This document shows positions 7,873 through 34,623 of a stretch of DNA of 64,000 bases, piece after piece. Location: assembly GCA_965263035.1 (NCBI GenBank), contig OZ253580.1, positions 864,001-928,000 on the forward strand, written 5' to 3'. The notes under the pieces were generated by a model that worked only from the letters and a program-made list of their open reading frames with translations, was not told the DNA's origin and searched no databases. Numbering within the stretch: the stretch's first letter is position 1; each line of letters begins with the position of its first letter. The stretch is from Acidobacteriota bacterium (GTDB lineage: Bacteria > Acidobacteriota > UBA6911 > RPQK01 > JAJDTT01). The position numbers and the translations under genes are program-made.

Positions 7873-9624
7873 ATGAAGTACTACGCCGTGTTGACTCTGT
7901 TAGTCCTTGCCACAACGACCTGCAAGATCGCCAATGGTCCATCGTCGACGCCTGACTTGATCTTAGCGCAAGGCGGCGTATCGGAGTTACAGATCGTAGT
8001 TTCACCCGCTGCCGAGGCGCCCGTACGGTTCGCCGCCGAGGAACTCCAGCGCTACCTGTCCCAGATCTCATCCATAGAAATTCCCATCACGACCGGTCCG
8101 GCACGGGGCCCGTCAATTCGAGTTGGCCTCGATGACGAGGGGAAGCTCTACGATTCTCTCCGGGGTCGGCCTGAGGACTCCTTTCTGGTTCGGGTAGACG
8201 AAGGAACACTTCATCTGGGCGGGAACACTCCTCGAGGCACGCTCTACTCCGTCTACTACTTTCTGGAGAGGTATCTGGATTGCGGTTGGATCAAGCCCGG
8301 TGAAGACGTCGTCCCGAAACGAGATCCGGTTGTATTGGCGGGGGATACCAGGGATATCCAGAGTCCTGATTTCAGTCACCGGAGTGTCAATCTTTATCCA
8401 TTTATCGCGGACCGGAATCTTCGCAACGTCGATTGGGCCGCCAAGAACCGTCTCAACTGGATTCATGCCTGTGCCAACAGTTCCCAACTTTGGGAGGATT
8501 TCAACAGCCGCTCCGAGCTGGTGCCCGAAATCGAGAAACGGGGACTGTTGATCAACTATGGCGGACACACCTTCCATAAGTGGGTCCCGCCCGCCCGATA
8601 TTTCAGTAGCCATCCGGAGTACTTCAGCTTGCTGGATGGGAAGCGGGACAGCCGGCAGCTCTGCATCTCGAACCAGGAGGTTGCGGAAGTCACAGCCCAA
8701 AATATCAATTCATTCTTGGATCAGAATCCTGAAATAGACATGGTCGACGTCTGGCTCAGTGATGTCATTGCATGGTGTGAGTGCGGGCCATGCCAGGAGA
8801 TGGAAGAGGGTAGGAGGATCAGCGTTTTCGACCTTCGTGGACCCGTTCAGAGTCGTTCCGACTCCAACATCAAGTTTATAAACCGAATTGCAGAAGGAGT
8901 ATCTCTCCGGCATCCCGAAGTGTTGATCCAGACGCTGGCCTATTTCATGCTCATGGACGCGCCCCTAAAAGTCACACCGGCCCCCAATGTCATGGTGGGA
9001 TTTGCGCCGATTACAAGGCAACCATCACAGAGCACGATCAACCGAACCGGTTACTGGAACGCGATTTACGATCCTCGTCACGAGGTCAACCGTTCCCGGC
9101 TGCGGGAGATCAGGAAGTGGCTCGCGATCATCGATCCAAAACGTTTCTTTACCTACGAATACTACTCCCATTTCAGCACGGCCTTAGCCATGATCAAACA
9201 AGAAACGACCCCTGAGAACCTGGAAGCCAAGCTCATTGATCCAAGCCAGAGGACGTTTCACGTTTACTCGGATACAGTCGCCAAGGACATCTGGTACTAC
9301 ACCCAGATTGGAATGGAAGGACTCGGTTCGGAGGAGTGGGACTGGAACGAGATCAATATGTACCTCTATCCCAGACTGCTGTGGGAACCGGGGCGATCCT
9401 CGGTCTCTCTTTTGGAAGAGTACTGCAACCGAGCGTACGGCCAAGCGGCTGCGCCGATGACCCTGCACTGGCTGATTCTGCAGGAAGCACGGGAGAAATA
9501 TCCTTCAGAAAAGAGCTATTGTCTGGCTTTGCTGGACCAGGCGGAGCAATTGACTCAGGACGGAGACGTGTTGCGGCGCATTGGCGAAATCCGCGAGATT
9601 TGGAGCCACATTCCAAGCCCGTGA
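7873..9624 (+). CDS. DUF4838-like lipoprotein with GH67/GH20-type N-terminal domain
   Basis: MKYYAVLTLLVLATTTC (lipoprotein-like); AAEELQRYL, RGTLYSVYYFLE, PDFSHR, GHTF, HPEYFSL, QLCISN, WCECGPC, LAY, RLLWEP, typical of DUF4838 proteins. Confidence 0.8.
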   Translation: MKYYAVLTLLVLATTTCKIANGPSSTPDLILAQGGVSELQIVVSPAAEAPVRFAAEELQRYLSQISSIEIPITTGPARGPSIRVGLDDEGKLYDSLRGRPEDSFLVRVDEGTLHLGGNTPRGTLYSVYYFLERYLDCGWIKPGEDVVPKRDPVVLAGDTRDIQSPDFSHRSVNLYPFIADRNLRNVDWAAKNRLNWIHACANSSQLWEDFNSRSELVPEIEKRGLLINYGGHTFHKWVPPARYFSSHPEYFSLLDGKRDSRQLCISNQEVAEVTAQNINSFLDQNPEIDMVDVWLSDVIAWCECGPCQEMEEGRRISVFDLRGPVQSRSDSNIKFINRIAEGVSLRHPEVLIQTLAYFMLMDAPLKVTPAPNVMVGFAPITRQPSQSTINRTGYWNAIYDPRHEVNRSRLREIRKWLAIIDPKRFFTYEYYSHFSTALAMIKQETTPENLEAKLIDPSQRTFHVYSDTVAKDIWYYTQIGMEGLGSEEWDWNEINMYLYPRLLWEPGRSSVSLLEEYCNRAYGQAAAPMTLHWLILQEAREKYPSEKSYCLALLDQAEQLTQDGDVLRRIGEIREIWSHIPSP

Positions 9625-9708
9625 TCAATATTGGTGCCGAGTCGGCCCACCGGCGACGAGGGATTCCGGTGATGGCTGTTTCCAATCGGAACTCTGAGGG
9701 TCCGTGTC

Positions 9709-10680
9709 TTAGCTGGAGGACATCCGGTAAGCCTGTTCGATGATCCTCTGACTGCGAAGCGCCAATTCCGGACGGGGATCGGGTTCTCGTCCCTCCTGCA
9801 CGGCGCGGACGAACTCGCTCAACGCCCCACGCATGCCGACAAGGGCACGTTGGGGGACGGTTGACTGGCTCGAAAAGGCAACGCTGTCTTTGTCTTCGTT
9901 GGTGCCGCGCAACGTCCATCCTTTCCAAGGCTGGACCTCAAGAGTGCCCTTCTCGCCGAAAATTCGTATTTCTCCTTCCATTCCAGGACCACCCGGACGC
10001 CAGGACAGGGCAATATGAACGGGAGAGCCATTCTCGAGGCGCAAGAAAAAGGCCGCCGTATCTTCCACATCTCCCATACCCTGCGAATATCCGAAACACG
10101 CGGACTCCAAACTGAGCTTCTGTCCCGTCAGCCAGCTCACGTGGTCGAGAAGATGCACACCGCTGGTCAGCCCTACTCCACCTCCAGCCTGCCCCCGTTG
10201 GAACATCCATGCGGGCAGCGATCCGAACAACCCGACATTTTCAAGCAACAAGTCATCGACGGCCAGCACATTTCCGATCAGTCCATCGGCGATCAATTCT
10301 CGGGCTTCTACGACCGGAGGCATGAAGCGATGGGTCATTTCGACCATCAGGACCAGGGACGCCCGCTTGGCCATCTCACAAAGCTGCTCGCCGGCTTCAA
10401 CCGTGAGCGCTAAAGGTTTTTCCACCAACACATGTTTGCCTGCCTTCAGGGCAGCGGTTGCAACCGGCTGGTGGGCCGAATGAGGCAGACAGACAGTGAC
10501 GGCGTCGATTGTGGGGTCGTCGAGCAGAGCTCGATAGTCGTCAAATGATTTGACGGTGCACTCCGCCCGTCTTTCAGGACTGGTCTCCGCAACGCCTACG
10601 AGAGAGGCGGATTCGATCTGTTCCAAGGCCCGGGCGTGTTGTTTGCCCGTATAGCCGTATCCGATGATGCCGAGCCTCAC
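9709..10680 (-). CDS. Gfo/Idh/MocA family oxidoreductase
   Basis: GIIGYGYTG Rossmann motif, GKHVLVEKPLA, GGG....GVHLLD; no signal peptide. Confidence 0.92.
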   Translation of the reverse strand: MRLGIIGYGYTGKQHARALEQIESASLVGVAETSPERRAECTVKSFDDYRALLDDPTIDAVTVCLPHSAHQPVATAALKAGKHVLVEKPLALTVEAGEQLCEMAKRASLVLMVEMTHRFMPPVVEARELIADGLIGNVLAVDDLLLENVGLFGSLPAWMFQRGQAGGGVGLTSGVHLLDHVSWLTGQKLSLESACFGYSQGMGDVEDTAAFFLRLENGSPVHIALSWRPGGPGMEGEIRIFGEKGTLEVQPWKGWTLRGTNEDKDSVAFSSQSTVPQRALVGMRGALSEFVRAVQEGREPDPRPELALRSQRIIEQAYRMSSS

Positions 10681-11646: not shown

Positions 11647-11784
11647 GTTTCGACTCCTCTGGATGTTCCTTAGGAAACGTCAGCGGTTTTCAGCGGACGC
11701 TCCGACCCAATTGCTCAACAAACGTCAATTCAAGTGGAGTTCATGTGGGCAACCGACCTACCCCGCCCAACTCAACTGTGCGCC

Positions 11785-11815
11785 AATATAGTGCGGGGAG
11801 GAAATGAAGTCCATT
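11785..11815 (-). promoter_or_regulatory. Shared promoter/operator motif, copy D (TGGACT-N17-TATATT; palindrome AATGGACTTCATT)
   Basis: Reverse complement reads AATGGACTTCATTTCCTCCCCGCACTATATTGG, upstream of the DMT-DMT-Gfo unit; a second related site AGTGGAGTTCATG lies at 11733-11745. Confidence 0.65.
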
Positions 11816-11873: not shown

Positions 11874-13577
11874 TCAGTGGCTCGGATGCTTCTCGGACGA
11901 ACCACGAGAACCTTCTATGACCTGGAGACGCTGATTGGCCCGAATTCCCTTCAGTGTATCCACGGTGCCGGATGGCCATCGGATCGCCAGCTCATCCACT
12001 TCGCTTCGTTCTCCCAGCCCCAAGTGCACCCAATAGGGTGAGGCTGAAAGATAACTGGCCCCGCCCAGCACCTGTGTTCTGAACCGCTTGTCTCCGACCC
12101 GCAACTCTATCCTTGCGCCAATGCCATTCGAGTTGGACTCGATTCCCTTCAGGCGGACTTCCAGCCAATTCTGTCCACTCCCGTGGTCGTTGGACAGGAG
12201 CATGGGACCTTGGCCGCAATTGCTGACCACGGCATCGAGATCCCCATCCTGATCAAAGTCACCCACGGCCAAACCGCGGCTTACCTGGGACCCCGACAAG
12301 GGATCACCAGGCTGACCTGCCTGGTTGACGAAACGCCCGTCCCGATTCTCGAACAGCAGCTTGGGCTGAGCGTAGGATGCTCCGGGTCGGATCTGAACGA
12401 TATTGTCGATGATATGTCCGTTGACAACGAGGATATCCAAGTCGCTGTCGTTGTCGAAATCGAGGAAACGGACACCGAAACCCACCAGATTCCGGGACGC
12501 CAATTTGACTTCGAAGAGGGCCGCGACCTCCTCAAAGAAAAAATCGTGATTCAGGTAAAGGGCAAGATACTCAACGTCCAGATTGGTGACTGCAATATCG
12601 GGCAAGCCGTCTCCATTGAAGTCGGCCATGTCGGCTCCCATACCGGCCTGGGGCGCCCCATTCTCATCGAAAGCCACACCCATATTGAGGCCGATCTCTT
12701 CGAAAGTACCGTTCTGCAGATTCTTGAACAGGTAGTTCCCCTGGGAATCGTTTGCGACGTAGATGTCGATCCATCCATCCCAGTCGAAGTCCCCCGCGAC
12801 GACTCCAAGGCTCTTTCCGGTGTATCGGGCGATTCCCGCCTGCTCGCTGATATCGGCGAATGTACCGTTTCCGTTATTTCGGAAGAGGAGGTCCGAGAGG
12901 CCATCGTAGACCTTGGGTGAGCAATAGGTTCGAATGCCCTTCTCGAGCCACGGTCCACAGACACGATTGTTGGCGAAGTTGTGGTCGAGGTACCTGGTCA
13001 CATAGAGATCGAGGTCCCCGTCGTTGTCGATGTCCAGGAATGCCGCGCTTGCCGACCAGCGGCCGTCCCCTGCCACTCCGGCTTGTTCGGTTCGGTCCTC
13101 AAAAGTCCCGTCCCCTTGATTTGCATATAGGATATTGCGTCCTGCGAAGTTTGTGATCAGGAGGTCATCGTCCCCATCGCCATCGTAATCCGCCACGGCA
13201 ATCCCTTGTCCGTAATCCTCGCTGGCCTTGATTCCTGCTGTGCGTGTCTGGTCGCGGAATCGTCCCTCCCCCAGATTTCGGTAGAGTGCGTGTCTGACGG
13301 GTGAAGGATCGATCACGCCCGGAACGCGTCCGCCATTGACAAAGAAGATATCCAGACTGCCATCCCCATCGTAGTCGAATAGCGCCACGCCGGAGCCCAT
13401 TGTCTCAACCAGATACTTCTCGGGGCTGGCGGAGTTCACATGTCGAAAACGGATTCCCGCCGGCTCGGTGATGTCTGAAAAATAGGCGTTTGGGGACGTC
13501 TGGGCAGCAGGCGTACCAGCGGCAACGACCAACAGGTTCGACCAGATGAATGCGCATCGTCCAACGCCCATCCTCAA
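11874..13577 (-). CDS. CRTAC1-family protein (FG-GAP plus ASPIC/UnbV)
   Basis: KYLVETMGSGVALFDYDGDG, DxDxDG repeats, SRGLAVGDFDQDGDLD, GASYLS..HLGLG..WPSG. Confidence 0.9.
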   Translation of the reverse strand: MRMGVGRCAFIWSNLLVVAAGTPAAQTSPNAYFSDITEPAGIRFRHVNSASPEKYLVETMGSGVALFDYDGDGSLDIFFVNGGRVPGVIDPSPVRHALYRNLGEGRFRDQTRTAGIKASEDYGQGIAVADYDGDGDDDLLITNFAGRNILYANQGDGTFEDRTEQAGVAGDGRWSASAAFLDIDNDGDLDLYVTRYLDHNFANNRVCGPWLEKGIRTYCSPKVYDGLSDLLFRNNGNGTFADISEQAGIARYTGKSLGVVAGDFDWDGWIDIYVANDSQGNYLFKNLQNGTFEEIGLNMGVAFDENGAPQAGMGADMADFNGDGLPDIAVTNLDVEYLALYLNHDFFFEEVAALFEVKLASRNLVGFGVRFLDFDNDSDLDILVVNGHIIDNIVQIRPGASYAQPKLLFENRDGRFVNQAGQPGDPLSGSQVSRGLAVGDFDQDGDLDAVVSNCGQGPMLLSNDHGSGQNWLEVRLKGIESNSNGIGARIELRVGDKRFRTQVLGGASYLSASPYWVHLGLGERSEVDELAIRWPSGTVDTLKGIRANQRLQVIEGSRGSSEKHPSH

Positions 13578-15058
13578 TTTGGACTCGATCCCGTGGACAA
13601 GAGTTGCTCAAAAATTTGTCTCTGGCGCGCGGCTTCTTGCACTCTTCCCAATCGTCGGAGAACCGATGAGAGGTTGAGGTGAAATAAGGCGTTCTTGGAG
13701 TCAAGCCGGATAGCTTTCTCGTAGGCGGTACGCGCCTTCTCGAATGAGCCAGTCGCAAAATGGAGATTTCCCAACTGGTTTTGGTGCGATCCGTTGGCTG
13801 GATCCAAGGTGACAGCATGGCTGAGAGCATCGATGGCCTCGGCGGTTCTCTGAACACTGTGCAGGATGTCGGCGAGAGAACGATAGTAGGCTGCGTTATA
13901 GGGCCTGGATTCTATGGCTTTTCGCAGCGCAGCGATGGAACCCTTGGAGTCCCCCTTCAGTGCAAGCACTTGAGCTATCCCGTAGTGACAGATGTCCTGA
14001 TTGGGATGTGGTCCCAATGCTTCCCTGAATGCTTCCAAAGCAGGTTCCAGCCTCCTCTCCTGCAGAAGTTTCATGCCTTTCTGGTAGAGGCTCTGACTTC
14101 TCGCGATCTCTTCATTCAGTTGACTGGTCTGCTCTTGCAGCTCTCGGTAACGATCGAGGGCCTCACTGGACTCTCTGAAGGCACCGGACCTCCTGTGGGC
14201 ACGGCTTAGAAGATAGTAGGCTTCCGGAGCCAATTGGTTTAATTCGACAGCCTTTTCCAGGTGCCGGAGAGCGGAACTGATCTGGTTCCGTTTCAGGTGA
14301 AGAGCTCCCAACTGCAAATGGAGCTTGAAGTTTCCCAATCCCAGAGCTTGAGCTCGCTCCAGGGAAAGCCGGCCCTGTTCAAAAGTGGATTTCTCCTGAC
14401 TGTAATAGGTCCCAAGAGCCAGGTGTGCGTAGGCGAGTTCAGAATCGAGTTCAATCGCTTTGCGTAGCCGTGCTTCGCCTTGAGAGTCGTCATTGATGGC
14501 CAAACGGTTTCTACCAGAGACGTACCACGCCTCGGCGTTTTGCGGGTCCGATTCAATGATCCGTTCTGCGATCCCTTCTGACCGAGCGTGTTCTCCCTTC
14601 TCGCCCAGCACATAGGCCAGCGTGAGCTGTGCGGCTGGGCAATCCGGCGCCAGCTTGGAGCAGGCTGTGGCGGTGTCTTCCGCAGCGCCTGGTTCATTGA
14701 GTCGGAGGTAGATCCTCGCCACGTATAGACAATAGGGCCACCGCTCGCCCGAAGAAGCCGCCTTCAGATAAGCCGCCAGGGCATTGTTATAGTCGCCTCG
14801 CATTTCCAGTGACTTGGCCGATTCAAAGTGAACTTGACCCGGAGCCTCGGACACCGGCCTCGCGCAAACATAAGTCAACCAAGGCATTCCGTCGGGTTGT
14901 TGCTGCTGCGAGGCAATAGTGCTGACCGCAACCAGGAGCAGGTGCAGGCTAATCATGTACAGGTGAGATCTCCGCCAAGTCAGCCTTGATCCACGGAAAA
15001 CGCCGACTCGAACACCCAAAATACCCGGGATCCAGACGACTGCAAGACCCGAAAACAA
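13574..15058 (-). CDS. Tetratricopeptide repeat protein
   Basis: Multiple TPR units; stop overlaps the CRTAC1 start. The true start may be downstream (MISLHLLLVAV). Confidence 0.85.
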   Translation of the reverse strand: MFSGLAVVWIPGILGVRVGVFRGSRLTWRRSHLYMISLHLLLVAVSTIASQQQQPDGMPWLTYVCARPVSEAPGQVHFESAKSLEMRGDYNNALAAYLKAASSGERWPYCLYVARIYLRLNEPGAAEDTATACSKLAPDCPAAQLTLAYVLGEKGEHARSEGIAERIIESDPQNAEAWYVSGRNRLAINDDSQGEARLRKAIELDSELAYAHLALGTYYSQEKSTFEQGRLSLERAQALGLGNFKLHLQLGALHLKRNQISSALRHLEKAVELNQLAPEAYYLLSRAHRRSGAFRESSEALDRYRELQEQTSQLNEEIARSQSLYQKGMKLLQERRLEPALEAFREALGPHPNQDICHYGIAQVLALKGDSKGSIAALRKAIESRPYNAAYYRSLADILHSVQRTAEAIDALSHAVTLDPANGSHQNQLGNLHFATGSFEKARTAYEKAIRLDSKNALFHLNLSSVLRRLGRVQEAARQRQIFEQLLSTGSSPN

Positions 15059-15078
15059 TCCATGACAGCGAAAGATGC

Positions 15079-17643: not shown

Positions 17644-17645
17644 CG

Positions 17646-20024: not shown

Positions 20025-20077
20025 CGCAATGCCTCCATCTGATTCGTTTTTCCGGGGCATTGGCAGAAATCGAGGAA

Positions 20078-20134
20078 CTGCCCCACCAACGAGATTTCCC
20101 ACCAAGATAGACTGGGGCCCAAGGGAAGTCCACT
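20078..20134 (-). promoter_or_regulatory. Shared promoter/operator motif, copy A (TGGACT-N17-TATCTT)
   Basis: Reverse complement AGTGGACTTCCCTTGGGCCCCAGTCTATCTTGGTGGGAAATCTCGTTGGTGGGGCAG; upstream of P2-P1-TPR-CRTAC1. Confidence 0.7.
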
Positions 20135-20292
20135 CAGCTATTGGATGTCCTGGATGACGACACCCGGGCGCGGCTGGCAATTGGAGTTGATAAGCGGATG
20201 AATCGGAAAAGAATTCAGGATCCGTTACCGAAGTGGTTCGTGGATGCGAGTGTACCGGAGTCCATTCGGTCAGGTCAGGTATCTGGGATCAC

Positions 20293-23355: not shown

Positions 23356-23362
23356 GACGTCC

Positions 23363-24523
23363 ATGGTGAAACTGAAATATCGATTTCTGGTGACGACATT
23401 TTTCGCCGTGATCGGCTTTGTTCCCGTATCTCAGGTCGTGTTCGAGTTGACACAGGGTGATCGACCTGTCGTCGCGGAATTGGTGTTGAACCTGCCTACC
23501 GAGCAGCACCTCAGAGAGGTCGAGAGCGAAATCGAGGAAACCTCCTGGTTTATCCGAAACTCCCGCTCCTTGGTGCAGCGCATCTGGTTCCGACTGTCGG
23601 GGCAACCCGGCGAAAATATCTTGGTCGGGCTCGATGGCTGGCTGTTCTATCTTCCCACAGTCCGTTTCCTGGTCGAACCCTTCCCACCCGGCAAGGATCG
23701 GCAATCCCACTTCCATGATCCCTTGGCCGCCATCACCGACTTTCATCGGCAGTTGGCCGGCCGCGGAATCCAACTGTTGGTGGTACCGGTCCCCGGCAAA
23801 GCCAGCATCTATCCCGAACGGGTCAGCTCCCGTGCCGATCCCGAGAAAATCGCGGATTCCTCGCATACGCTGGAGTTCATCTCCCAATTGAACAACGCGG
23901 GGATACCAACGATCGATCTCTTTGAGATATTCCACCAGGAGCGTCGGCGGGACCGTTCAACCAACGTAGAGCACTTCTATCTCTCGCAAGACACGCATTG
24001 GACGCCGGAGGGTGCCGGATTGGCCGCTCAAGCCGTTGCGCAGGGAGTCTTGAGAGAGGGTTGGGTGACCGCAGGTTCGAAAGAATACGCTCAAAAGCCG
24101 TTTACAGTGGCACGCCGCAGCGACATTCTCAGAATGGCGCGTTCACCATCGATCGAAAGGCTCTTTCCTCCCCAGGAAGTCACCTGCCAGCAGGTGTTCG
24201 AATCGGACACCGGAAACCTCTACCAGGACGATCTCGATTCCCCGGTGCTCGTCCTCGGGGACAGCTTCTTGAGGATCTACCAGACTGACAATCCCAAAGC
24301 GGCGGGCTTTCTGGCGCATCTCGCCAAGAACCTGAGACGTCCGGTCGCTTCGATCGTCAACGACGGAGGCGCGTCCACGTTGGTCCGACAGCAGTTGAGC
24401 AGGAACCCCGACCTGCTGGAGGGCAAGAAACTAGTCGTTTGGGAATTTGTGGAGAGGGACTTGCGCTTCGGAATGGAGGGCTGGCAGAAGATTCCAATTC
24501 CTTCCACTTCGAGTCGCCGATGA
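23363..24523 (+). CDS. AlgX/AlgJ-like SGNH O-acetyltransferase
   Basis: N-terminal TM, G.DGWLFY, VP.KASIYPE, DTHW (Asp/His), GDSF (Ser), WEFVER. Confidence 0.85.
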   Translation: MVKLKYRFLVTTFFAVIGFVPVSQVVFELTQGDRPVVAELVLNLPTEQHLREVESEIEETSWFIRNSRSLVQRIWFRLSGQPGENILVGLDGWLFYLPTVRFLVEPFPPGKDRQSHFHDPLAAITDFHRQLAGRGIQLLVVPVPGKASIYPERVSSRADPEKIADSSHTLEFISQLNNAGIPTIDLFEIFHQERRRDRSTNVEHFYLSQDTHWTPEGAGLAAQAVAQGVLREGWVTAGSKEYAQKPFTVARRSDILRMARSPSIERLFPPQEVTCQQVFESDTGNLYQDDLDSPVLVLGDSFLRIYQTDNPKAAGFLAHLAKNLRRPVASIVNDGGASTLVRQQLSRNPDLLEGKKLVVWEFVERDLRFGMEGWQKIPIPSTSSRR

Positions 24524-24590
24524 ACGCCTGAGAAAACCTGGCCGGCGGTATCTCGTCTGATTCAAGTCAATGCACCCCAATTCGCCCCAT

Positions 24591-27080: not shown

Positions 27081-27142
27081 CGCCTGATCTCCTCCTATAG
27101 GAGCAGACCGCCACAGCGGTCACCGAGGATCTGCTCAGGTGT

Positions 27143-29644
27143 CTAATCCTGGTCCATTGTGTCCGTCGAAAGCTCCTGCAGGCGCGCCTTGATTTGGTGC
27201 AGGCCCTCCAGCCAGGTCGCCTGGTCTCCGCCCAGTGGATCGACGGTGTCAAACGTAAAGTCCCGATCCAGGAGCGATTCCAACGTATCCAGTTCGTTCT
27301 TGGTCCGCGCGACCAGGGGTGCCACTACGTCCCGACCCTTTTTGTCCAGCGAAGCCGCCAGCGCCTCATGGTAGCGATTCAAAACCCTGGCGAATCCCCG
27401 TCCCACTCGCAGACACTTGCGCAGGTACTCGACATCGGGGCGGGCATCGGCGCGGAGATCGGAGGTCCGGAGCACTTCGGACGTAAGCGCGACCGCCTCG
27501 GCGTTGACTTCGTCGTAAGCCTGCCAGAGTTCTGCCCACCGTCTCTGCCAATCCACGGAGTCGATACCCAAAAGCGTCGTCAGTTCCTTGGCGCGCGCCG
27601 ACAATTTCGGGCCTCCGGATTCCTGGTCCATGCTCAGAATTCGCCAGAGGATCGAGAGTGGGTATAGTCTCTCAGCCGCCACCGGGACCAGAAGATCGAT
27701 TTCACTTCCGTAGACCTCATCCACCGTCCGGTCGTAGTGGGTGGCCATGATCGTGCGACCGATCCCTTCCGGCACTTCAACCCGGCGCTGAGTCCGGTAG
27801 AAGTTGAAAATTCGGTGCATTTTCCCGCCCGCATCGTCCCCGTAGAGCTGTCGGAAGGCCTCGGAGAGAAACCCGGCGGGACCGGTGATCTCCGGTCCCA
27901 GATCCCGATTGTTCATCAACGCCTTCCAAGTCGAACGGGTCTCCTCATTGCGGATCGGAATGACATGGCCGGGGGCATCGACGTTCCAACTGTACTCCGC
28001 ATTGAAGAGCTGAAGCGGCTCCTGGAAGACGGCCCCACTGAAGTTGTAGATCGCCTCAGCCCCCTTGAAGATCCCATTCATGGCAGCAGTCCCCGCAAAG
28101 GGATAGTTGAAGGAATCTCTTGAATAAAGATCAGCTCCGCCCAGAAAGAAGAGGAACGTGCGGGTGTTCAGGCCTTGGCTTCCCAACCTTTGGCGATAGG
28201 CATCGATCCACCGCACATCGGTTCCCTGCTGAGGGAAGACCTCCCGGAAGCCGATCTCAATGTTCTCGTCATGGGGAAGCAGCGACATCACGTTCGACCA
28301 GTAGATCAGGTGGTTTTCCCAGTCGGTGGGCAGGGTCGGAAACGGGTTGTATCCGGGACTGAGGAACATGACGGTACAGTCGCGGGCGGCATCATAACCC
28401 GAGTCGGCATTCTTGACGCTTCGTATGGCCCGCAGGAGTTCGTTGTAACCATGAGCCACGGCTCCGGCCCCGCCGTCTTTGGTGATGAGGCTGTCGTTGG
28501 GCCATTGCTTGCGGCAACGAAAACATCTCTTTTTCCAGGTTACCCAGAGTTCGTAGTTGGTCAGGTGATAGTCGAGGTTGGGATCACCGATTCCGCGGTC
28601 TTCATGGTGGATGTAAAGCGCTCCCGGCTCTATGGAGCGGACAAAGTCGGCCATCTCGGCGGCTTTGAGCCGATTCAGCGCCTGGTTCCCGCGACAGGTT
28701 CCCAAGATGCCACGCCCCGGACGGTTTTCTCCGAAGCAGGAGTAGATCGTTCCGTCCGGATATTGATCGCGGTTGTACCAGACCTTGCCGACATTGCGTT
28801 CGGGTCGGACGATACGGCCATAGTTGGCGCCGTACCCGGCAAACAGGAGCTTGATACCTCGCGCTCTGGCGTAGCCGTTCAACTCCCTCATCATTCTCGA
28901 GTAGCCGGGAAACTTCTCACGGTTCCACCCGTAGCCGTCGAAGAAAACCAGGTTGATCTTGTAGCGAAGACAGAAGTCGATTTTCCTCTTGAGGCGCTGG
29001 ACATAGGCCTCCTTGCCGTCACCCCAGTCATAGGCCCAGCGGTTGATTTCCGCCAACAGCAACCAATCGGCCGCGGCCCGATAGCGAAAATCGGGAAAAT
29101 CACGAATAGAGCCGTTCGGGACCAGAACCGCACTACCGGTCCGCCTCATGACCTGCCGGAGAGAAGCGGCAGCATAGAGAACGCCCTGGGCGCTTCCACC
29201 GACGAGCCAGACCTGTGGCTGGTTTCCCGGAACCACTTTGAGCACATACCCTTGTTCGGCCCTGGCAGGATCGGAAAGCAGCTCTCGATCGGCCGGCTCA
29301 AGGAAGGAATCGGCTTGCTTTCTCAAAATGCCGTTACGACTCCAGTCCACCAGGTGAATCCCACCCAGGACGGGCTGAGGTGCGGCGCCCGTCAGGAAAG
29401 TGGGCGGGGGAAAAACTGAAGGATCTTGGGAGCGGATCAGGTCAGCCGCCAGACGTTCTTTTGCCGAAGCTCCCTCTGCTAGAACCAGTCGAGTCGAGTC
29501 CGATCCTTTCTCAAACCGAACCGTCTGCTGGTCCCAAACCTGATGCTGGGGTGTGGGAATGATCCGGGGCGTTCCTTCCAAGGCTTGCCCGCTGATGACC
29601 AAGAGGATTGCAATGAGCAGTCCGGACGTACTCAATCGATACAT
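27143..29644 (-). CDS. GH20 zincin-like N-terminal domain protein, paralog P4
   Basis: Signal peptide; IIPTPQ; RWAYDWGDG, GTCRGN, YIHHED, CFRC..WPND, NAEYSWN, DPLGGD. Confidence 0.8.
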   Translation of the reverse strand: MYRLSTSGLLIAILLVISGQALEGTPRIIPTPQHQVWDQQTVRFEKGSDSTRLVLAEGASAKERLAADLIRSQDPSVFPPPTFLTGAAPQPVLGGIHLVDWSRNGILRKQADSFLEPADRELLSDPARAEQGYVLKVVPGNQPQVWLVGGSAQGVLYAAASLRQVMRRTGSAVLVPNGSIRDFPDFRYRAAADWLLLAEINRWAYDWGDGKEAYVQRLKRKIDFCLRYKINLVFFDGYGWNREKFPGYSRMMRELNGYARARGIKLLFAGYGANYGRIVRPERNVGKVWYNRDQYPDGTIYSCFGENRPGRGILGTCRGNQALNRLKAAEMADFVRSIEPGALYIHHEDRGIGDPNLDYHLTNYELWVTWKKRCFRCRKQWPNDSLITKDGGAGAVAHGYNELLRAIRSVKNADSGYDAARDCTVMFLSPGYNPFPTLPTDWENHLIYWSNVMSLLPHDENIEIGFREVFPQQGTDVRWIDAYRQRLGSQGLNTRTFLFFLGGADLYSRDSFNYPFAGTAAMNGIFKGAEAIYNFSGAVFQEPLQLFNAEYSWNVDAPGHVIPIRNEETRSTWKALMNNRDLGPEITGPAGFLSEAFRQLYGDDAGGKMHRIFNFYRTQRRVEVPEGIGRTIMATHYDRTVDEVYGSEIDLLVPVAAERLYPLSILWRILSMDQESGGPKLSARAKELTTLLGIDSVDWQRRWAELWQAYDEVNAEAVALTSEVLRTSDLRADARPDVEYLRKCLRVGRGFARVLNRYHEALAASLDKKGRDVVAPLVARTKNELDTLESLLDRDFTFDTVDPLGGDQATWLEGLHQIKARLQELSTDTMDQD

Positions 29645-29666
29645 GGCTGCACCGTGTTCCTTTCCT

Positions 29667-32120
29667 CTAACGAAATTCGACGCCTCGACGGGGCATCGAT
29701 TGAGCCCACGCCAACAGGTTACTTCTTAGTTCCTCGAGGGTCAGCGCCCAACTCGACAGGTCGCCGCCTTTCGGATCCACCGTGTCAAACGAAAAGGAGT
29801 CTTCGAGGTAAGTCCAAACCCGCTCGATCCCGGTGAGGATCTCCACGATCTCCCCTTGTCCATCCGGCCCTGTCACCCGATTGCCGATCGCGTCATGGTA
29901 GGACGCCAGGAGACCTCCAAACCGGATCCCCACTTCCAGGCAGCGCTCCAGGTGGCGCAGATCCGGCACGGCTTCCTCCCTCACGTCGCCGACGCCGAGG
30001 GCTTCGGTCACCATTCGCTTTCCCTTTCGGTTGACCTCGGCAAGTTGCCTCCAAAAGGCTGCTATCCCTCGTTGCAAGAGAGCGTACTCCTGGGCTGAAA
30101 AGGTGCGCACACGCCCCCTGATTCGGATCTCCGTGGCGGCATCCTCCGTGTCTTCCAGCGCGCGGCTGCCCGCCGAACCCGATCCCCAATAGGCGCTGTC
30201 GGCTTGAAAGAGCCTCCAGAAGACAGCGTTCGGATAGACCTTCCTGGGGTAAAAGGCGGGAATCTCATTGTCCCCAAGCGGTTCGAAGAAGTTGAAGAAA
30301 CGCGCCATGAGCTTGCCCGTCTTCGCCCCGTAGATTCGAACGCACGCCTCTTCGAACAGTCCCCCGGAACCGTACACCTCCTCGGGAAGTTCCTGGTTCG
30401 ACCGGAGCCGGTTCCATGCAGCCAGAGCCGTCTCGAAGGTATTCGGCCGTTGGTAGCCAGGGGCGTCGACATTCCAACTGAATTCGGCGTTGACGACCTG
30501 CAACGGTTCCTGGTGGACTCCTCCACTGAAATTGTAGATCGCTTCGGCGCCTTCAAAAATTCCGTTTATGACCGGGGTCGCCGCATACGGATAGTTGAAG
30601 ACGCCACCGGAATATTGGTCAGCGCCCCCCAAAAAGAACATGAAGGTTTTATCGCTCAACCCTCGGGAGGCCATTCTCTCCTTGAACGCTGGAATCCACG
30701 GTTCACCCGTTCCCTGACGAGGAAAAATCTCTCGAAAGCCGATCTCGACATTATCTTGCGACGGCAGAAGCGATACCGCGTTGGCCCAGAATTCGAGGGT
30801 CTTTTCCCAGTTGAGATCTTCATCGGTGTCGACGCCACCCAGGCCGGACCGCCCGGAATCTATCCCATAGGGCGGCGAGATCAGAATAATGGTGCAATCG
30901 CGCGCTGCATCGTAGCCGGTATCCGGGTTGCGCACTCGTTGGATACTCTCGACGATCTGACCGTATCGATAGGCAAGGGCTCCGGCACCACCGTCCAGAG
31001 CGGCGAAATCGTCGTTGGGCCATCGGCCCTTGCACCCCGGGTCGCGTGCCTTCCAACGTTCCACGTTGCTCTTGTAGTGTCCCGTGTCCTCGTGATGGAT
31101 GTACAAAGCCCCGGGTTCTACCGTGCGAACCAACTCGGTGATCGCTCCGACGATCTCCCTGTTTTGCGCCTCGTTCGAGCGACAGGTGCCCAAAGTGGGG
31201 TGGAGGGGTGTTCGAAGTTCGCCGTAACACGCGTATAGAGGCCCGTCAGGGTAACTTTTCCGGTTCAGAAATATTTTCCCGATGTTGTGCTCGGGCTCGA
31301 CTTTCAGGGGGTCGAAGTTGGCGCCAAATCCAGCATAGACAAGCTTGATCCCACGGTCACGGGCATAGGAGTTCAGTTCCCGCATCATCGCACCGTAGCC
31401 GGGTACTTTTTCGGCAGTCCAACCAAAGCCGTCAAAGAAAACCATATTGATCTTGAAGCGCAGACAGAAATCGAGCTTGCGCTTGATCCGCTCCATGTAG
31501 GCTCTCCTGCCATCTCCCCAGTCGTAACCCCAGCGGTTGAGCTCGGCACGCATGAGCCAGTCCGCTGCGGCCCGGTACTTGAAGTCCGGGTAATCCCTCA
31601 CTTCCACTTCAGGGATGACGAGCTCCCCGTCCTCCACTGACCACAGTTGCACCAGAGTGGTCACCGCGTAGAGCGCACCCAGCGGAGCGGACCCGAGCAG
31701 AAGTATCCGTTGGTGTTTAGGATCCGTCTTGATCACATAAGCCTGGCCGGTATCTTGGGGATCATTCAGCACCTTACGATCGGCGTCGGAAAGGAGTCTC
31801 AGTAACTCATAGGACCGGTTTTCCTTTTGGCTCCAGTCCAATAGCAGTATGCACGGCGTTCCGGAACACTCCGTCGCCATCTGTAGCTGAACTCCACTGA
31901 CGCTGGCCTCCTGGCGAAGAAACTGCTCTGCAAGCTCAAGCATTCGGCTACGCGACGGGCGGGCCACTACCCAACCGCCGGAGGCTCCTGCACCGCTCTT
32001 AATTGCCCCGGACCCGGCTTCCAGGACCTGAGGCATGGGAATCACGCGGGGCGTGGCCCAAAGCGCAGGGACCAGGAAGAAAAATGAGAGGACGAACGAC
32101 GTTCTTCTGAGGAAACACAT
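29667..32120 (-). CDS. GH20 zincin-like N-terminal domain protein, paralog P5
   Basis: Start reassigned to ATG 32120 (AGGAG upstream; MCFLRRTSFVLSFFFLVPALWA); RWGYDWGDG, GTCRSN, YIHHED, DPGC..WPNDD, NAEFSWN, DPKGGD. Confidence 0.8.
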   Translation of the reverse strand: MCFLRRTSFVLSFFFLVPALWATPRVIPMPQVLEAGSGAIKSGAGASGGWVVARPSRSRMLELAEQFLRQEASVSGVQLQMATECSGTPCILLLDWSQKENRSYELLRLLSDADRKVLNDPQDTGQAYVIKTDPKHQRILLLGSAPLGALYAVTTLVQLWSVEDGELVIPEVEVRDYPDFKYRAAADWLMRAELNRWGYDWGDGRRAYMERIKRKLDFCLRFKINMVFFDGFGWTAEKVPGYGAMMRELNSYARDRGIKLVYAGFGANFDPLKVEPEHNIGKIFLNRKSYPDGPLYACYGELRTPLHPTLGTCRSNEAQNREIVGAITELVRTVEPGALYIHHEDTGHYKSNVERWKARDPGCKGRWPNDDFAALDGGAGALAYRYGQIVESIQRVRNPDTGYDAARDCTIILISPPYGIDSGRSGLGGVDTDEDLNWEKTLEFWANAVSLLPSQDNVEIGFREIFPRQGTGEPWIPAFKERMASRGLSDKTFMFFLGGADQYSGGVFNYPYAATPVINGIFEGAEAIYNFSGGVHQEPLQVVNAEFSWNVDAPGYQRPNTFETALAAWNRLRSNQELPEEVYGSGGLFEEACVRIYGAKTGKLMARFFNFFEPLGDNEIPAFYPRKVYPNAVFWRLFQADSAYWGSGSAGSRALEDTEDAATEIRIRGRVRTFSAQEYALLQRGIAAFWRQLAEVNRKGKRMVTEALGVGDVREEAVPDLRHLERCLEVGIRFGGLLASYHDAIGNRVTGPDGQGEIVEILTGIERVWTYLEDSFSFDTVDPKGGDLSSWALTLEELRSNLLAWAQSMPRRGVEFR

Positions 32121-32403
32121 AAATCTTTCTTCTCCTATTATGCGTCGCGACCGCTTCGCTCGACCTGCCTCCCCACTCCGCTCCGAGTTACAAGTCGAAT
32201 CCGCATCTCCAGAATAAAGTTCCCGAAGTCGGCATACCGCCGACGGTCCATCCAACTCCGGTAGCTGCGAAGTGAAACCCGTGGCCGGCGCGACGACAAC
32301 TTGCCGCACTCGCTGAGAGGGGAGTCGGGAACGCCCCTACTCTTCGGGCTCCGGGGCCACACCCCGGACTACGCGAATCTCAGGCCCTTGAGCCGGCACC
32401 CTG

Positions 32404-32465
32404 AAGTGGACTTCACTTGGCCCCCAGTCTATCATTGGTGAAAGATCTTGTTGGTTTGAGGGCAG
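32404..32465 (+). promoter_or_regulatory. Shared promoter/operator motif, copy C (TGGACT-N17-TATCAT; palindrome AAGTGGACTTCACTT)
   Basis: AAGTGGACTTCACTTGGCCCCCAGTCTATCATTGGTGAAAGATCTTGTTGGTTTGAGGGCAG; upstream of the PTE and SelA-like genes, in the region divergent from P5. Confidence 0.7.
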
Positions 32466-32482
32466 GTTATGGAGAAGAAGAG

Positions 32483-33430
32483 ATGATGTCAAGCCAGGGT
32501 GAAATTGTTACCGTTTTGGGCTCCATTCCCCAGGAAGACGCTGGTTTCACCCTCTGTCATGAACACCTGATCTGCGACCTCTGGCCACTTTTCCCCAGTT
32601 ACAACAACATCTTGGATGAAGAGAAGCTCGCGGTACAGGAATTGGCCGAATTCAGGAAGGCGTCCGGTGGCACCCTGGTGGATTGCACCAGCATCGGACT
32701 CGGCCGAGATCCCCAAGCCCTGAAACGTATCGCCCAGTCGACCGGTGTGAACATCGTCATGGGAACCGGCTGGTATCGTGAGGAGGTCTATCCGCCGGAA
32801 ATCAGGGAGAAGTCGACTGAGGAACTCGCCGATCTGATGGTTCAAGAGATTCGGGAAGGTGTCGATGGAAGTGGTATACGGGCGGGCATAATCGGAGAAA
32901 TCGGGACCGAGCGTTATTCCATCACACCTGCCCAGGAAAAGGTGTTTCGTGCTTCAGCTCGAGCACAGAAGCGGACCGGCGTCAGCATTTGGACTCACAC
33001 CACTTATTTTGGAGAATTAGCGCTTGAGCAGATCGATCTACTTCAAGAGGAAGGCGTGCCTTGCGACCGTATCGTCATCAGTCACTTGGGAGACCGTCCG
33101 GTACCGGACCGGTTTCTGGCTATTGCCGAAAGGGGGGTGTTCCTGGGAATCGACAATATCGGATATGTCGGTGATGGTTATCCTGATGACGGCATCCGCA
33201 TTGCCAACATACTGGAATTGATATCAGCTGGACATCTGAACCAGCTCATGCTTTCGCTGGATATTTGCATGAAGGGCCATCTTCTTGCTTACGGAGGCAA
33301 AGGATACGCATATTTGCAAAGAGAATTCTTGCCTCGGCTGAAGCGGGCGGGCGTAACGGATGAACATATCCGATGCCTGACCGTAAGCAACCCCCGCCGT
33401 GCCCTGGGTATGCAGAGGGCGCAGGGTTGA
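32483..33430 (+). CDS. Phosphotriesterase-family (PHP/PLL-like) amidohydrolase
   Basis: TLCHEHL (HxH), GLGRD, GIIGEIG, HT, SH, SLD metal ligands; start at ATG 32483 after GGAG. Confidence 0.9.
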   Translation: MMSSQGEIVTVLGSIPQEDAGFTLCHEHLICDLWPLFPSYNNILDEEKLAVQELAEFRKASGGTLVDCTSIGLGRDPQALKRIAQSTGVNIVMGTGWYREEVYPPEIREKSTEELADLMVQEIREGVDGSGIRAGIIGEIGTERYSITPAQEKVFRASARAQKRTGVSIWTHTTYFGELALEQIDLLQEEGVPCDRIVISHLGDRPVPDRFLAIAERGVFLGIDNIGYVGDGYPDDGIRIANILELISAGHLNQLMLSLDICMKGHLLAYGGKGYAYLQREFLPRLKRAGVTDEHIRCLTVSNPRRALGMQRAQG

Positions 33431-34623
33431 TGGGTGCAAAGAGAAACCCCATTTATCAACGGCTGGGCGTCCGTGAAGTGATCAATGGCCGAAGTTTCAG
33501 CACCAAAGTCGGTGGCTGCATCATGGATCCTCAGGTGATCCAGGCCATGCAGAAAGCAAGCCGGTCCTTTGTTCGCATTGAAGATCTGGAGGAGGCGGCA
33601 AGCAGGACCATCTCGCAGATCACAGGCGCCGAAGCAGGTTACGTCACTTCAGGCGCGGCAGCGGGACTCACCTTGGCCATGGCTGCTTGTATGACGGGAC
33701 TCGATCCCGAAAAGATGAATCGCTTGCCCGATACGACGGGGATGAAGAACGAAGTGATCATTCAGCGGGGTCATCGCAACGATTATGACCACGCGTTGAG
33801 AGCGGCAGGAGCAAGGGTCAAGGAGATCGGTTACAACTACGCCACATTCCCCTATGAGCTGGAGCGGGCCATCGATGAGAAAACCGCTGCCGTCTTTTAC
33901 TTGGCTGGAATCGCTGACGGCAGCTTACCCATCGCCCGGGTCACCGAAATCGCCGGAGAAAAAGGGGTCCCCGTCATCGTAGACGCGAGCGCAGAACTGC
34001 CGCCACGAGAGAACCTCCGCAGATTTATCGGCCACGGAGCCGATCTCGTCGTCTTCAGCGGCGGAAAACACATCCGCGGACCCCAGTCGAGCGGCTTCAT
34101 TTGCGGTCGAAAGGAACTGATTCTAGCCGCCGCACTGCAGCATCAGGACATGGACGTATTCCCCGAAACCTGGAGTTCCCGCAATTTGATCGATGAGGGC
34201 ATTCTTCCCGGCCCCCCACACCACGGGATCGGACGGGGCTTCAAGGTCGGCAAGGAGGAAATCGTCGGTCTCGTGACAGCCTTGACCCGTTATGTTGAAA
34301 GGGATCTGGAGGCAGAGCTACAGCACTGGAAGGAAACCACTCATGCCATCGTGGAGGGCGTGAATCAGATTGACGGTCTGAGTGGAGCATTCCAGTTTCC
34401 GAAACCAAGCGGCAGGATCGTCCCGGCGGCCCATATCCGAGTAGACCCGATGAAGTACGGCCTGGACGCCCATGGCCTCATTAACGCGCTCCAGGATGGT
34501 GACCCCATCATCGCCGTTTATGAGAGCTTCGCCGCTAAGGGTAAAGTGATCATCTTTCCCGAGAATCTGCGGCCGGGCGACGTTCCTCTGATCTTGGATC
34601 GTCTACGGGAGATCAAGGCGTGA
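33430..34623 (+). CDS. SelA-related PLP-dependent enzyme (DgaE-like)
   Basis: LGVREVIN..GG, VTSGAAAG, IVDASAE, DLVVFSGGK (PLP lysine)..GPQSSG, IGRGFKVGKEEIVGL; TGATG coupling to the PTE gene. Confidence 0.85.
   Translation: MGAKRNPIYQRLGVREVINGRSFSTKVGGCIMDPQVIQAMQKASRSFVRIEDLEEAASRTISQITGAEAGYVTSGAAAGLTLAMAACMTGLDPEKMNRLPDTTGMKNEVIIQRGHRNDYDHALRAAGARVKEIGYNYATFPYELERAIDEKTAAVFYLAGIADGSLPIARVTEIAGEKGVPVIVDASAELPPRENLRRFIGHGADLVVFSGGKHIRGPQSSGFICGRKELILAAALQHQDMDVFPETWSSRNLIDEGILPGPPHHGIGRGFKVGKEEIVGLVTALTRYVERDLEAELQHWKETTHAIVEGVNQIDGLSGAFQFPKPSGRIVPAAHIRVDPMKYGLDAHGLINALQDGDPIIAVYESFAAKGKVIIFPENLRPGDVPLILDRLREIKA

Follow-up and report, generated by a model that had tools for sequence, protein, structure and literature searches.

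A low-GC island in an Acidobacteriota genome with five glycosidase-like paralogs and four operons behind one promoter motif

The DNA described here is a stretch of 64,000 nucleotides, called the window, which spans bases 864,001-928,000 of a single-contig genome of 6,198,070 bases with a G+C content of 62.1%. The nearest named relatives of its genes are found in Acidobacteriota assemblies, and the host is a soil/marine-type Acidobacteriota genome. The left part of the window holds five related glycosidase-like genes, a DUF4838 gene, two half-sized drug/metabolite transporter (half-DMT) genes in front of a Gfo/Idh/MocA oxidoreductase gene, a phosphotriesterase-family (PTE) gene coupled to a gene for a pyridoxal phosphate (PLP) enzyme of the SelA/DgaE kind, and an MBOAT/AlgX pair. 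Several of these operons start with the same motif. Each of these elements had been listed in the original prediction for this DNA, and each is present. Together they are discussed here as a candidate system for the breakdown of amino-sugar glycans.

The island and its genes

The genes sit in the longest low-GC run of the genome. This run covers genome bases 852,001-900,000, or window positions of about -12,000 to +36,000 (36.2 kb). Its G+C content is 54-59%, while 2-kb windows across the genome average 62.1% (sd 2.9). The limits first given to the feature, 7873 to 34623, were too narrow on the left: the island and its conserved partners run from about -12 kb to 36.2 kb. Table 1 lists the features within the window.

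Table 1 Features of the island in window coordinates, with promoter modules.
Feature	Position	Strand	Evidence
TonB-dependent-type outer-membrane beta-barrel (CarboxypepD_reg + OMP_b-brl_4)	1-2565, runs off window start	-	Pfam, 472.5 bits
TPR protein (6314-7798), then FG-GAP/ASPIC-UnbV protein (4585-6309)	4585-7798	-	Pfam; signal-like N-termini
DUF4838 protein (GH163/GH185 domain)	7873-9624	+	PF16126, 203.3 bits vs 26.6, profile positions 2-320 of 325
Gfo/Idh/MocA NAD(P) oxidoreductase, cytoplasmic; proposed sugar 1-dehydrogenase	9709-10680	-	PF01408, 103 bits; PF22725, 64.1 bits
Half-DMT 2, 139 aa	10720-11139	-	only a sub-threshold SMR match, 18.6 vs 23.7; 4-5 hydrophobic segments
Half-DMT 1, 167 aa	11143-11646	-	EamA, 29.0 bits vs 28.2; 5 hydrophobic segments
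Module copy 1, DMT-DMT-Gfo unit	11755-11813	-	nhmmer E 5.5e-16
Second TPR (13574-15058) and FG-GAP/ASPIC (11874-13577) pair, behind paralogs 2 and 1	11874-15058	-	Pfam
Paralog 1	15079-17643	-	predicted GH84-fold family
Paralog 2	17646-20057	-	predicted GH84-fold family
Module copy 2, paralog 2-paralog 1-TPR-FG-GAP unit	20075-20132	-	nhmmer E 2.2e-17
Module copy 3, PD40-unk161-MBOAT-AlgX unit	20295-20353	+	nhmmer E 7.5e-18
PD40 beta-propeller	20357-21469	+	Pfam
161-aa lipoprotein-like protein (unk161), of no known family	21466-21951	+	atlas: hypothetical clusters only
MBOAT acyltransferase	21952-23355	+	PF03062, 104 bits
AlgX/AlgJ-type SGNH protein (ALGX domain)	23363-24523	+	PF16822, 133.7 bits
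Paralog 3	24591-27080	-	predicted GH84-fold family
Paralog 4	27143-29644	-	predicted GH84-fold family
Paralog 5	29667-32120	-	predicted GH84-fold family
Module copy 4, PTE-SelA-like unit	32407-32470	+	nhmmer E 6.1e-16
PTE-family (Php-like) binuclear-metal hydrolase; proposed sugar-lactonase	32483-33430	+	PF02126, 258.6 bits
DgaE-related (SelA-like) PLP enzyme; proposed 2-amino-aldonate ammonia-lyase	33430-34623	+	NCBIfam DgaE, residue comparison
Third TPR protein; right edge of low-GC island just after	34613-36178	-	Pfam; GC profile

The five paralogs are 829-880 amino acids (aa) long as listed and 35-48% identical to the first, and they are the only copies in the genome. The open reading frames (ORFs) of paralogs 2 and 5 are listed with starts that lie too far upstream; the first methionine with a hydrophobic, signal-like stretch behind it is at 20057 in paralog 2 and at 32120 in paralog 5. 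For paralog 2 the start was set at 20057 because the listed start, 20180, lies upstream of the promoter module. The sole Pfam domain in each paralog is the N-terminal Glyco_hydro_20b (PF02838, 34.1-38.8 bits with a cut-off of 26.1).

The 829-aa paralog was modelled with AlphaFold2 from 50 sequences, with a predicted local distance difference test (pLDDT) score of 87.7 and a predicted template modelling (pTM) score of 0.90. The model consists of an N-domain, an eight-stranded TIM barrel and a helical bundle, which is the three-domain architecture of GH84. Foldseek returns GH138, GH84 and GH20 together as its top matches, with E about 1e-16. In VIA-align, the model matches C. perfringens GH84 with Z 18.5 (root-mean-square deviation, rmsd, 9.5; 535 aligned; model residues 28-829) and the human O-GlcNAcase core with Z 17.5 (rmsd 3.5, 277 aligned).

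Across the 50 aligned sequences H359, E361-D362 and R483-E484 are invariant, as are several Trp and Tyr and four Cys. The strand-4 motif of the paralogs is YIHHED. The pair E361-D362 comes directly after strand 4 (model strand 355-359), and R483-E484 lies on strand 6. GH20 and GH84 have their acidic pair for substrate-assisted catalysis (Asp-Asp in GH84) after strand 4. With an invariant Glu-Asp at what may be the corresponding position, the paralogs have, by their fold and this pair, a putative hexosaminidase-type mechanism. Going by the model, the five form an uncharacterised family with the architecture of GH84 O-GlcNAcase.

A profile of the five paralogs, run against solved structures, matched only the N-domains of GH84 and GH20. 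The GH84 catalytic model PF07555 has no match in the genome, while the control, B. thetaiotaomicron, does match. There is no GH20 catalytic-domain match in Pfam either, and the paralogs lack the H-x-G-G-D-E signature as it is given in the accessible text of PMC10570127. The paralogs were also considered as divergent DUF4838 proteins. This was rejected: hhalign aligns the N-domain alone, with a probability of 8%.

The family is large. There were 243 matches among 8,000 scored candidates, and 958 family representatives at E <=1e-3, of which 174 at E <=1e-30. Where homologs have a name at all, it is 'GH20 zincin-like fold domain-containing protein' or 'hypothetical protein'. Assemblies that hold them belong to Acidobacteriota, Planctomycetota, Verrucomicrobiota, Armatimonadota, Latescibacterota and Kiritimatiellia, often with several to a contig.

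The PTE gene most likely starts at the ATG at 32483. Its TGA stop (33428-33430) overlaps the ATG of the SelA-related gene (33430-33432), as TGATG. A five-codon mini-ORF (ATG...TGA, 32469-32486) overlaps the PTE start codon; relatives read TTAGGG for TTATGG there, and since it is not kept in related genomes it is probably due to chance. The protein is 37% identical to E. coli Php, and the HEH (HxH), the Glu of GEIGT, and the THT, SH and LDI positions align. These residues we take to be metal ligands, as in the Php structure. The best PDB matches are 3k2g and Php itself (1bf6/4lef). The Php equivalog NF007373 is not reached, at 226.4 bits with a cut-off of 486, and Php is in any case annotated as 'putative hydrolase'.

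The PLP enzyme has the solved DgaE as its closest solved relative (E 1.1e-54), with similarity that starts seven residues after the ATG at 33430. Its only close solved relatives are glucosaminate-6-phosphate lyases. It stays below both DgaE cut-offs (NF047797, 250.1 bits vs 600; TIGR01437, 227.3 vs 385.3). In the accessible text on DgaE (PMC9529869), the phosphate is modelled at Arg-301, Arg-332 and Arg-346 by manual docking, the carboxylate is at Arg-226, and His-162/His-163 are strictly conserved. In a HMMER alignment, the loop with the two histidines is deleted from the window's enzyme, and the three phosphate positions are Ala, Tyr and Glu, where the C-terminal part of the alignment is weak (36 bits). 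The same holds for all nine cassette orthologs (53-92% identity): the phosphate-cluster positions are never Arg, and the His-His loop is deleted. The PLP-lysine motif FSGGKH and CGR, which contains the Arg-226 position, are kept in all 10 sequences, with CGK in one ortholog. The enzyme also has an extra segment compared to DgaE, around residues 260-281.

Since the carboxylate arginine and the PLP lysine are kept and the phosphate arginines are lost, the alignment points to a non-phosphorylated 2-amino-aldonate as the substrate, so still a 2-amino acid but not a 6-phosphate. This agrees with there being no kinase or phosphotransferase system (PTS) gene in the cassette.

The Gfo enzyme has both its N-terminal Rossmann domain and its C-terminal domain. 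Every NCBIfam equivalog is far below cut-off; the best row is UDP-GlcNAc 3-dehydrogenase, with 122.8 bits vs 450. Its PDB neighbours include the aldose-aldose oxidoreductase 5a02. Elsewhere in the genome, at 2,731,327-2,734,393 and 4,355,968-4,360,820, there is a PTE paralog (51% identical) with a Gfo paralog at a distance of about 1 kb, and another Gfo paralog has a SelA-like paralog beside it. From these pairs it appears that the PTE, SelA-like and Gfo families tend to travel together.

The half-DMT genes precede the Gfo gene on the same strand. In all 12 related loci that hold both halves, they are adjacent and in the same order. Prediction of their complex scored 0.55, with 0.00 for the best of three controls. 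That mark is reached by 58 of 80 solved complexes and by 2 of 110 mismatched pairs; between the mark and 0.60 lie 7 of those solved complexes and both of the passing mismatches. At least 96% of the contacts are common to the runs, with a partner pLDDT of at least 76, and the model used possibly remembers solved DMT structures. The prediction gives weak support to the proposal that the halves form a heterodimeric inner-membrane sugar transporter.

The DUF4838 protein starts with a lipoprotein-like N-terminus, MKYYAVLTLLVLATTTC. Such signal-like N-termini are present on all five paralogs, and on the DUF4838, PD40, 161-aa, AlgX-like, TPR and FG-GAP proteins; Gfo, PTE and the PLP enzyme have none. 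The calls were made by simple hydropathy and not by a trained predictor. This agrees with the topology that had been expected, in which some enzymes are exported, the half-DMT pair is in the membrane, and Gfo, PTE and the PLP enzyme stay in the cytoplasm.

From their domains, the PD40, unk161, MBOAT and AlgX genes are predicted to be a glycan O-acetylation cassette. Compared with the NCBIfam DltB-like model, the MBOAT protein scores 158.9 bits, with a cut-off of 375. Pfam scans of the larger ORFs of the island found no synthase, glycosyltransferase, polymerase or exporter family (ORFs under 100-150 aa were not scanned).

To the left of the window, the low-GC block continues with an alpha-galactosidase-like gene (7.5 kb upstream), a xylose-isomerase-like gene and a RhaM gene, all 5-8 kb before the window start. 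At the left edge of the island there is an IS630-type DDE transposase gene (L068:4872-5888). A DUF1501 / PSD1-PSCyt2 gene pair also lies within the block (L068:5933-10174).

TPR genes recur three times in the window part of the island, with FG-GAP/ASPIC-UnbV pairs among them, and there is a further site at L068:15327-17096. These proteins have signal-like N-termini throughout, and one pair is in line with two paralogs. In that second pair, the TPR and FG-GAP/ASPIC genes overlap stop to start at 13574-13577. Just outside the island comes a BNR-repeat (sialidase-like) gene (36251-38359), which has 10 genome paralogs at 50-70% identity. After that follow arginine biosynthesis genes (39166-43066, minus strand) for ornithine carbamoyltransferase, argininosuccinate lyase and argininosuccinate synthase. 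These have normal GC and are unrelated to the island.

A promoter module shared by four operons

The pattern TGGACTTCAYTNNNNCCCCNNNCTAT (26 nt) has four matches in the window at up to three mismatches, where 0.06 are expected and none of 100 shuffles reaches four. These four are also the only such matches in the whole genome. The copies align over about 65 nt: TGGACTT, a conserved spacer (CCCC), TCTATCTT, and then a G(A/G)GGGCAG box. Every copy lies upstream of an operon, 35-130 nt before its start, and points into it. Genome-wide, no copy falls within a gene or away from a promoter position. Neither the paralog 5-4-3 unit nor the DUF4838 gene has a copy upstream.

In a simple promoter scan, the copy before the PTE gene is sigma-70-like, with TGGACT, 17 nt and TATCAT (9/12). 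The other three have the same geometry by eye, with TATCTT or TATATT. A reading of the module as an extracytoplasmic function (ECF) sigma promoter was set aside, as both the spacer of 17 nt and the hexamers suit a promoter of the sigma-70 type. The genome has 15 Sigma70_r2 genes, none of them in or near the window. The leaders behind the modules show no consensus structure (0 pairs), and no Rfam family was found in the window.

The module is kept at orthologous sites in five related loci (L001, L002, L003, L008 and L022), at 11 sites with at most three mismatches, while the flanks have diverged. The paralogs of these module-bearing relatives are 86-91% identical. No copy was found in the more distant cassette loci. 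The claim that four transcription units share one promoter motif is thereby borne out: it is present at four sites, unique in the genome and conserved.

Run against the genome, a profile made from the four copies has one additional match, 159,090-159,159 (E 7e-4). This match stays with a profile of 15 sequences (E 3.4e-4), as the sole other match below E 1. It is the right end of a single-copy element of the IS3 family of insertion sequences (IS), whose terminal inverted repeats are TGACC...GGTCA and whose HTH_Tnp_1 (orfA) frame is interrupted by an internal stop (TAG). The tip of the element, GGGGCAGGTCA, corresponds to the G(A/G)GGGCAG box of the modules, and the spacing is identical. The ends of IS elements are known to carry outward promoters. 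Given the profile match and the correspondence of tip and box, the modules may descend from the end of an IS3-family element, as domesticated element ends. This is offered as a lead.

Two RNA libraries from one study, X11 and X17, have contigs that cover 14700-34690 in pieces at an identity of at least 99%. Such contigs may derive from DNA, and carry no information on transcript starts or levels. In X11, the module-holding intergenic regions at 20083-20343 and 32412-32464 have no contig. In X17 one contig crosses the 32412-32464 region and another begins at 20175. No conclusion is drawn from the gaps or from these contigs. A third RNA library, X20, labelled 'sponge metagenome', has short contigs that are 90-99% identical to parts of 19663-30864, so a related strain occurs there.

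The neighbourhood in other genomes

A pattern scan with one genome per species gave 114 confirmed relatives of the paralog family. The best 80 were kept, which make up 66 loci. Flanks of up to 10 kb were examined; because many loci span no more than 2-7 kb, truncation accounts for some of the misses. PTE genes are near the family in 18-19 of the 66 loci, Gfo in 15, the two DMT halves in 13 and 12, SelA-like genes in 10 and DUF4838 in 9. PD40 and unk161 follow with six each, MBOAT with five and AlgX with four. The MBOAT/AlgX cassette accompanies the family in close relatives only.

At least two of PTE, SelA-like, DMT and Gfo are present, by score thresholds, at 14 of the 66 loci. These are divided unevenly: three of five loci in the window's own genus, none of 12 in fragmented AH-259 assemblies, and nine of 20 in other loci labelled Acidobacteriota, with the remainder under other labels. 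Gene order varies among those nine. The genome of the window has 6 PTE, 3 SelA-like and 1 copy of each DMT half, and with so few copies we estimate the chance of such adjacency at about 2% or less.

Other genes recur as well. An outer-membrane barrel (CarboxypepD_reg/OMP_b-brl_4) lies beside the family in 11 of the 66 loci; the best match to it in the window's own genome is the barrel gene at the start of the window (44% identity, 1078 aa). In polysaccharide utilisation loci of the Bacteroidota type, a SusC-like barrel goes together with a SusD-like lipoprotein; the window's barrel has a CarboxypepD_reg domain, and no match to the SusD family was seen in the scans. After the barrel, six loci have a 405-430-aa protein of no Pfam family, without a homolog in the window genome. 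A protein of about 500 aa whose atlas neighbours have the automatic name alpha-galactosidase-like is found in four loci, a RhaM-type mutarotase also in four, and a xylose-isomerase-like TIM protein in two.

Finally, an amidohydrolase of the cog3964 type recurs in six of the 66 loci. Its solved relatives are 8je0, 2ogj and 2ics. Enzymes of the 2ogj type act as hydrolases on alpha-hydroxy and alpha-amino acids that are acetylated. In four other Acidobacteriota loci (L088, L091, L097 and L099), distant DgaE-like genes lie within 1.5 kb of such an amidohydrolase. A reverse search with the PLP enzyme matched 34 of 301 sampled Acidobacteriota genomes at E <=1e-40, a count that includes G049.

The flanks of distant cassette loci hold unrelated genes, with no sugar kinase, aldolase or regulator among them. 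In the literature within reach, which excludes subscription journals and supplements, no description of the paralog family or the cassette was found.

A proposed route and its relation to known systems

The proposal is that this is a catabolic island resembling a polysaccharide utilisation locus (PUL), with four co-regulated operons, that feeds an amino-sugar glycan into a non-phosphorylative oxidative hexosamine route. We give this an even chance. The substrates and reactions, the inward direction of transport and the joint expression of the operons are inferred as follows. The five exported paralogs, the DUF4838 enzyme and the alpha-galactosidase-like protein would trim a glycan that contains 2-acetamido or 2-amino sugars. 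The TonB-type barrel would import the fragments through the outer membrane, and the half-DMT heterodimer would carry the monosaccharide into the cytoplasm. There, the RhaM-type mutarotase encoded upstream would supply the right anomer, and the Gfo enzyme would oxidise C1 to give a lactone. The Php-like PTE hydrolase would open this to a 2-amino(acetamido)-aldonate. In many relatives, though not here, the cog3964-type amidohydrolase would remove the acetyl group. The DgaE-like enzyme would then eliminate water and ammonia, leaving a 2-keto-3-deoxy-aldonate. A PLP ammonia-lyase would take the place of a dehydratase because C2 carries nitrogen. The four operons would be switched together via the sigma-70-like module of about 65 nt that is unique to the locus.

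The mutarotase, amidohydrolase and barrel in related loci, and the loss of phosphate-binding residues, speak for the amino-sugar route that had been suggested. A number of findings weigh against it. The TIM barrel of the paralogs has no sequence similarity to any solved structure, with only a chance match at E 1.6. The hhalign probability for the paralogs against six acidobacterial GH84 proteins is 0.4%. GH138, which is not a hexosaminidase family, ties with GH84 in Foldseek, so the paralogs may have a specificity other than for amino sugars. The models nearest to Gfo, all below cut-off, include C3-dehydrogenases, UDP-GlcNAc 3-dehydrogenase among them, and the upstream xylose-isomerase-like TIM-barrel gene would suit a 3-keto route in place of this one.

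This locus lacks the amidohydrolase. Its sole homolog in the genome is in another context, beside an aminotransferase, an M20 peptidase, a DHDPS-family gene and an SSF transporter, and was rejected as a member of the system. The Eda-type 2-keto-3-deoxy-6-phosphogluconate (KDPG) aldolase (PF01081) has no match in the genome, at a completeness of 97%. There are 4 PfkB kinases and 13 DHDPS-family genes, so that cleavage of the 2-keto-3-deoxy acid is more likely by a DHDPS-family class I aldolase. The MBOAT/AlgX (algI/algJ) and TPR/FG-GAP genes belong to the regulon, yet the proposed route has no place for them, and no regulator for the units was found.

Co-occurrence with PTE, DgaE-like, Gfo and DMT genes, the check proposed in the original prediction, is seen within Acidobacteriota but breaks down outside: under non-acidobacterial labels only 2 of 29 loci have at least two of the four families. 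And within the sample of 301 genomes, the SelA-like genes outside the window's genus are distant paralogs, with no PTE gene in their 1.5-kb flanks.

A rival reading is a catabolic, co-regulated island that does something other than oxidise an amino sugar at C1. The paralogs might then cleave another glycoside (GH138 is an alpha-galacturonidase family), Gfo might act at C3 together with a xylose-isomerase-like lyase, and the PTE/DgaE-like pair might work on another lactone, a lactam or a D-amino-acid-like compound. Next to the tie with GH138, the paralogs have no sequence link to the catalytic domains of GH84 or GH20. For Gfo, the models of levoglucosan and glycoside 3-dehydrogenases score no worse than the other models, and Php carries no more than the annotation 'putative hydrolase'. 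But the full three-domain match is to GH84, and the N-domain is of the GH20b/GH84 type. The only close solved relatives of the PLP enzyme act on glucosaminate-6-phosphate, and its carboxylate arginine is kept. The DUF4838 neighbour comes from hexosaminidase-type families, and an amidohydrolase of the acyl-amino-acid type and a mutarotase recur in the cassette. The xylose-isomerase-like gene, present upstream, is rare among the loci. We think this explanation unlikely, if a serious competitor.

The shared module on the MBOAT/AlgX operon could also indicate that the locus serves to remodel the cell's own envelope or exopolysaccharide and not to nourish the cell. MBOAT/AlgX would O-acetylate a secreted glycan and the paralogs would trim it. 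The half-DMT pair would flip a lipid-linked sugar, as ArnE/ArnF do, and Gfo would make a nucleotide keto-sugar. The best NCBIfam row for Gfo and the resemblance of the second half-DMT to SMR proteins agree with this. The island scans, however, saw no glycosyltransferase, polymerase or exporter gene, and the partners conserved elsewhere are of uptake and catabolic types (TonB barrel, mutarotase, lactonase-type enzyme, amidohydrolase, ammonia-lyase relative). MBOAT/AlgX itself is with the family in just 4-5 of the 66 loci, all close relatives. Remodelling is quite improbable on this evidence.

Most improbable of all is that the motif consists of solo ends of an IS3-family element without any co-regulation, with the grouping due to acquisition of an island and not to a regulon: the sole other match of the module models is indeed an IS3 right end, and a DDE transposase gene borders the island, but four copies with sigma-70-like hexamers that point into operons from close by, and that persist at orthologous positions while their flanks diverge, are hard to square with this, and an IS origin is compatible with promoter function.

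Returning to the amino-sugar route, a more specific version of it can be formulated. The island would then represent an undescribed non-phosphorylative pathway for hexosamine or N-acetylhexosamine that runs over a mutarotase, Gfo, a PTE lactonase, a deacetylase and a phosphate-independent DgaE-like lyase. In this genus its regulon would be built from IS3-end modules, with O-acetylation induced alongside, perhaps to shield the cell's own glycans. This is tentative, and more doubtful than probable.

If the proposal is right, the paralog family, with about 170 or more clusters at 50% identity that are now labelled only 'GH20 zincin-like fold domain protein', would count as a new family of glycosidases. 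Php and its branch of the phosphotriesterase family, long an orphan, would be given a function in the cell, that of a sugar-lactonase, and the DgaE family a phosphate-independent branch. It would also be a new bacterial way to obtain carbon and nitrogen from amino sugars with neither kinases nor a PTS. Acidobacteriota are abundant and poorly cultured, and little is known of their use of complex glycans. The conserved cassette is a compact set of six to eight genes.

Non-phosphorylative oxidative routes exist for L-rhamnose and L-fucose, and as the De Ley-Doudoroff and Weimberg/Dahms pathways. The proposed route has the same sequence of mutarotase, 1-dehydrogenase, lactonase and elimination to a 2-keto-3-deoxy acid. 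It differs in that a PLP ammonia-lyase would replace the dehydratase, and in that the proposed lactonase is from the PTE family.

In E. coli, Php is likewise in an operon with PLP enzymes, php-yhfS. As YhfS is not a relative of the PLP enzyme of the window (best local E 0.066), this pairing was rejected as the same cassette. The PLP enzyme shares with DgaE the fold-type I SelA-like scaffold, the PLP-lysine motif and the carboxylate arginine, Arg-226. Unlike DgaE, it has no PTS or DgaF aldolase beside it.

The paralogs have the three-domain architecture of GH84 (BtGH84, CpOGA/NagJ, human OGA), with Z 17-18.5. In contrast to GH84, their barrel has no detectable sequence similarity and no match to PF07555, and there is a long Cys-containing insertion between strands 3 and 4. 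The acidic pair after strand 4 is Glu-Asp, in the motif IHHED, and four cysteines are invariant. The MBOAT (PF03062) and the AlgX/AlgJ SGNH-like protein (PF16822) resemble alginate-type O-acetylation (AlgI/AlgJ/AlgF/AlgX), except that, going by the Pfam scans of larger ORFs, they are not in an operon for polymer synthesis or export.

According to the accessible text of PMC10570127, GH163 (BT1035) and GH185 (Sp_0475) are DUF4838 enzymes, distant relatives of GH20 whose substrate-assisted catalysis acts on substrates of the GlcNAc type. The protein encoded at 7873-9624 clearly belongs to PF16126 and so resembles these; the five paralogs fall outside DUF4838.

Of the systems described so far, the ong cluster of Pseudoalteromonas comes nearest. 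According to the accessible text of PMC9537276, it converts N-acetyl-glucosaminate to 2-keto-3-deoxygluconate (KDG) via a deacetylase and a deaminase. The two have TonB-dependent uptake, a periplasmic hexosaminidase-type enzyme and an inner-membrane transporter in common. They also agree in cytoplasmic deacetylation and PLP-dependent deamination of a 2-amino-aldonate, without prior phosphorylation. In the ong cluster the aldonate is made outside the cell by a lytic polysaccharide monooxygenase (LPMO), whereas here it would be made inside by Gfo, the PTE lactonase and the mutarotase. The KdgK, RidA and repressor genes of the ong cluster have no counterparts here.

The enzymes themselves are also different, as far as that text describes them. 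Where the ong cluster has the GH20 glycosidase OngA, there is the new GH84-fold family, and instead of an SSS transporter there is the half-DMT pair. The deacetylase OngB is of the D-aminoacylase type, compared to the cog3964-type amidohydrolase of the relatives, which this locus lacks. The deaminase OngC is of the D-amino-acid deaminase type, compared to the DgaE-like enzyme here. The proposed system would be a PUL-like cluster joined to an oxidative sugar route, and its enzymes come from branches of known superfamilies that are still uncharacterised.

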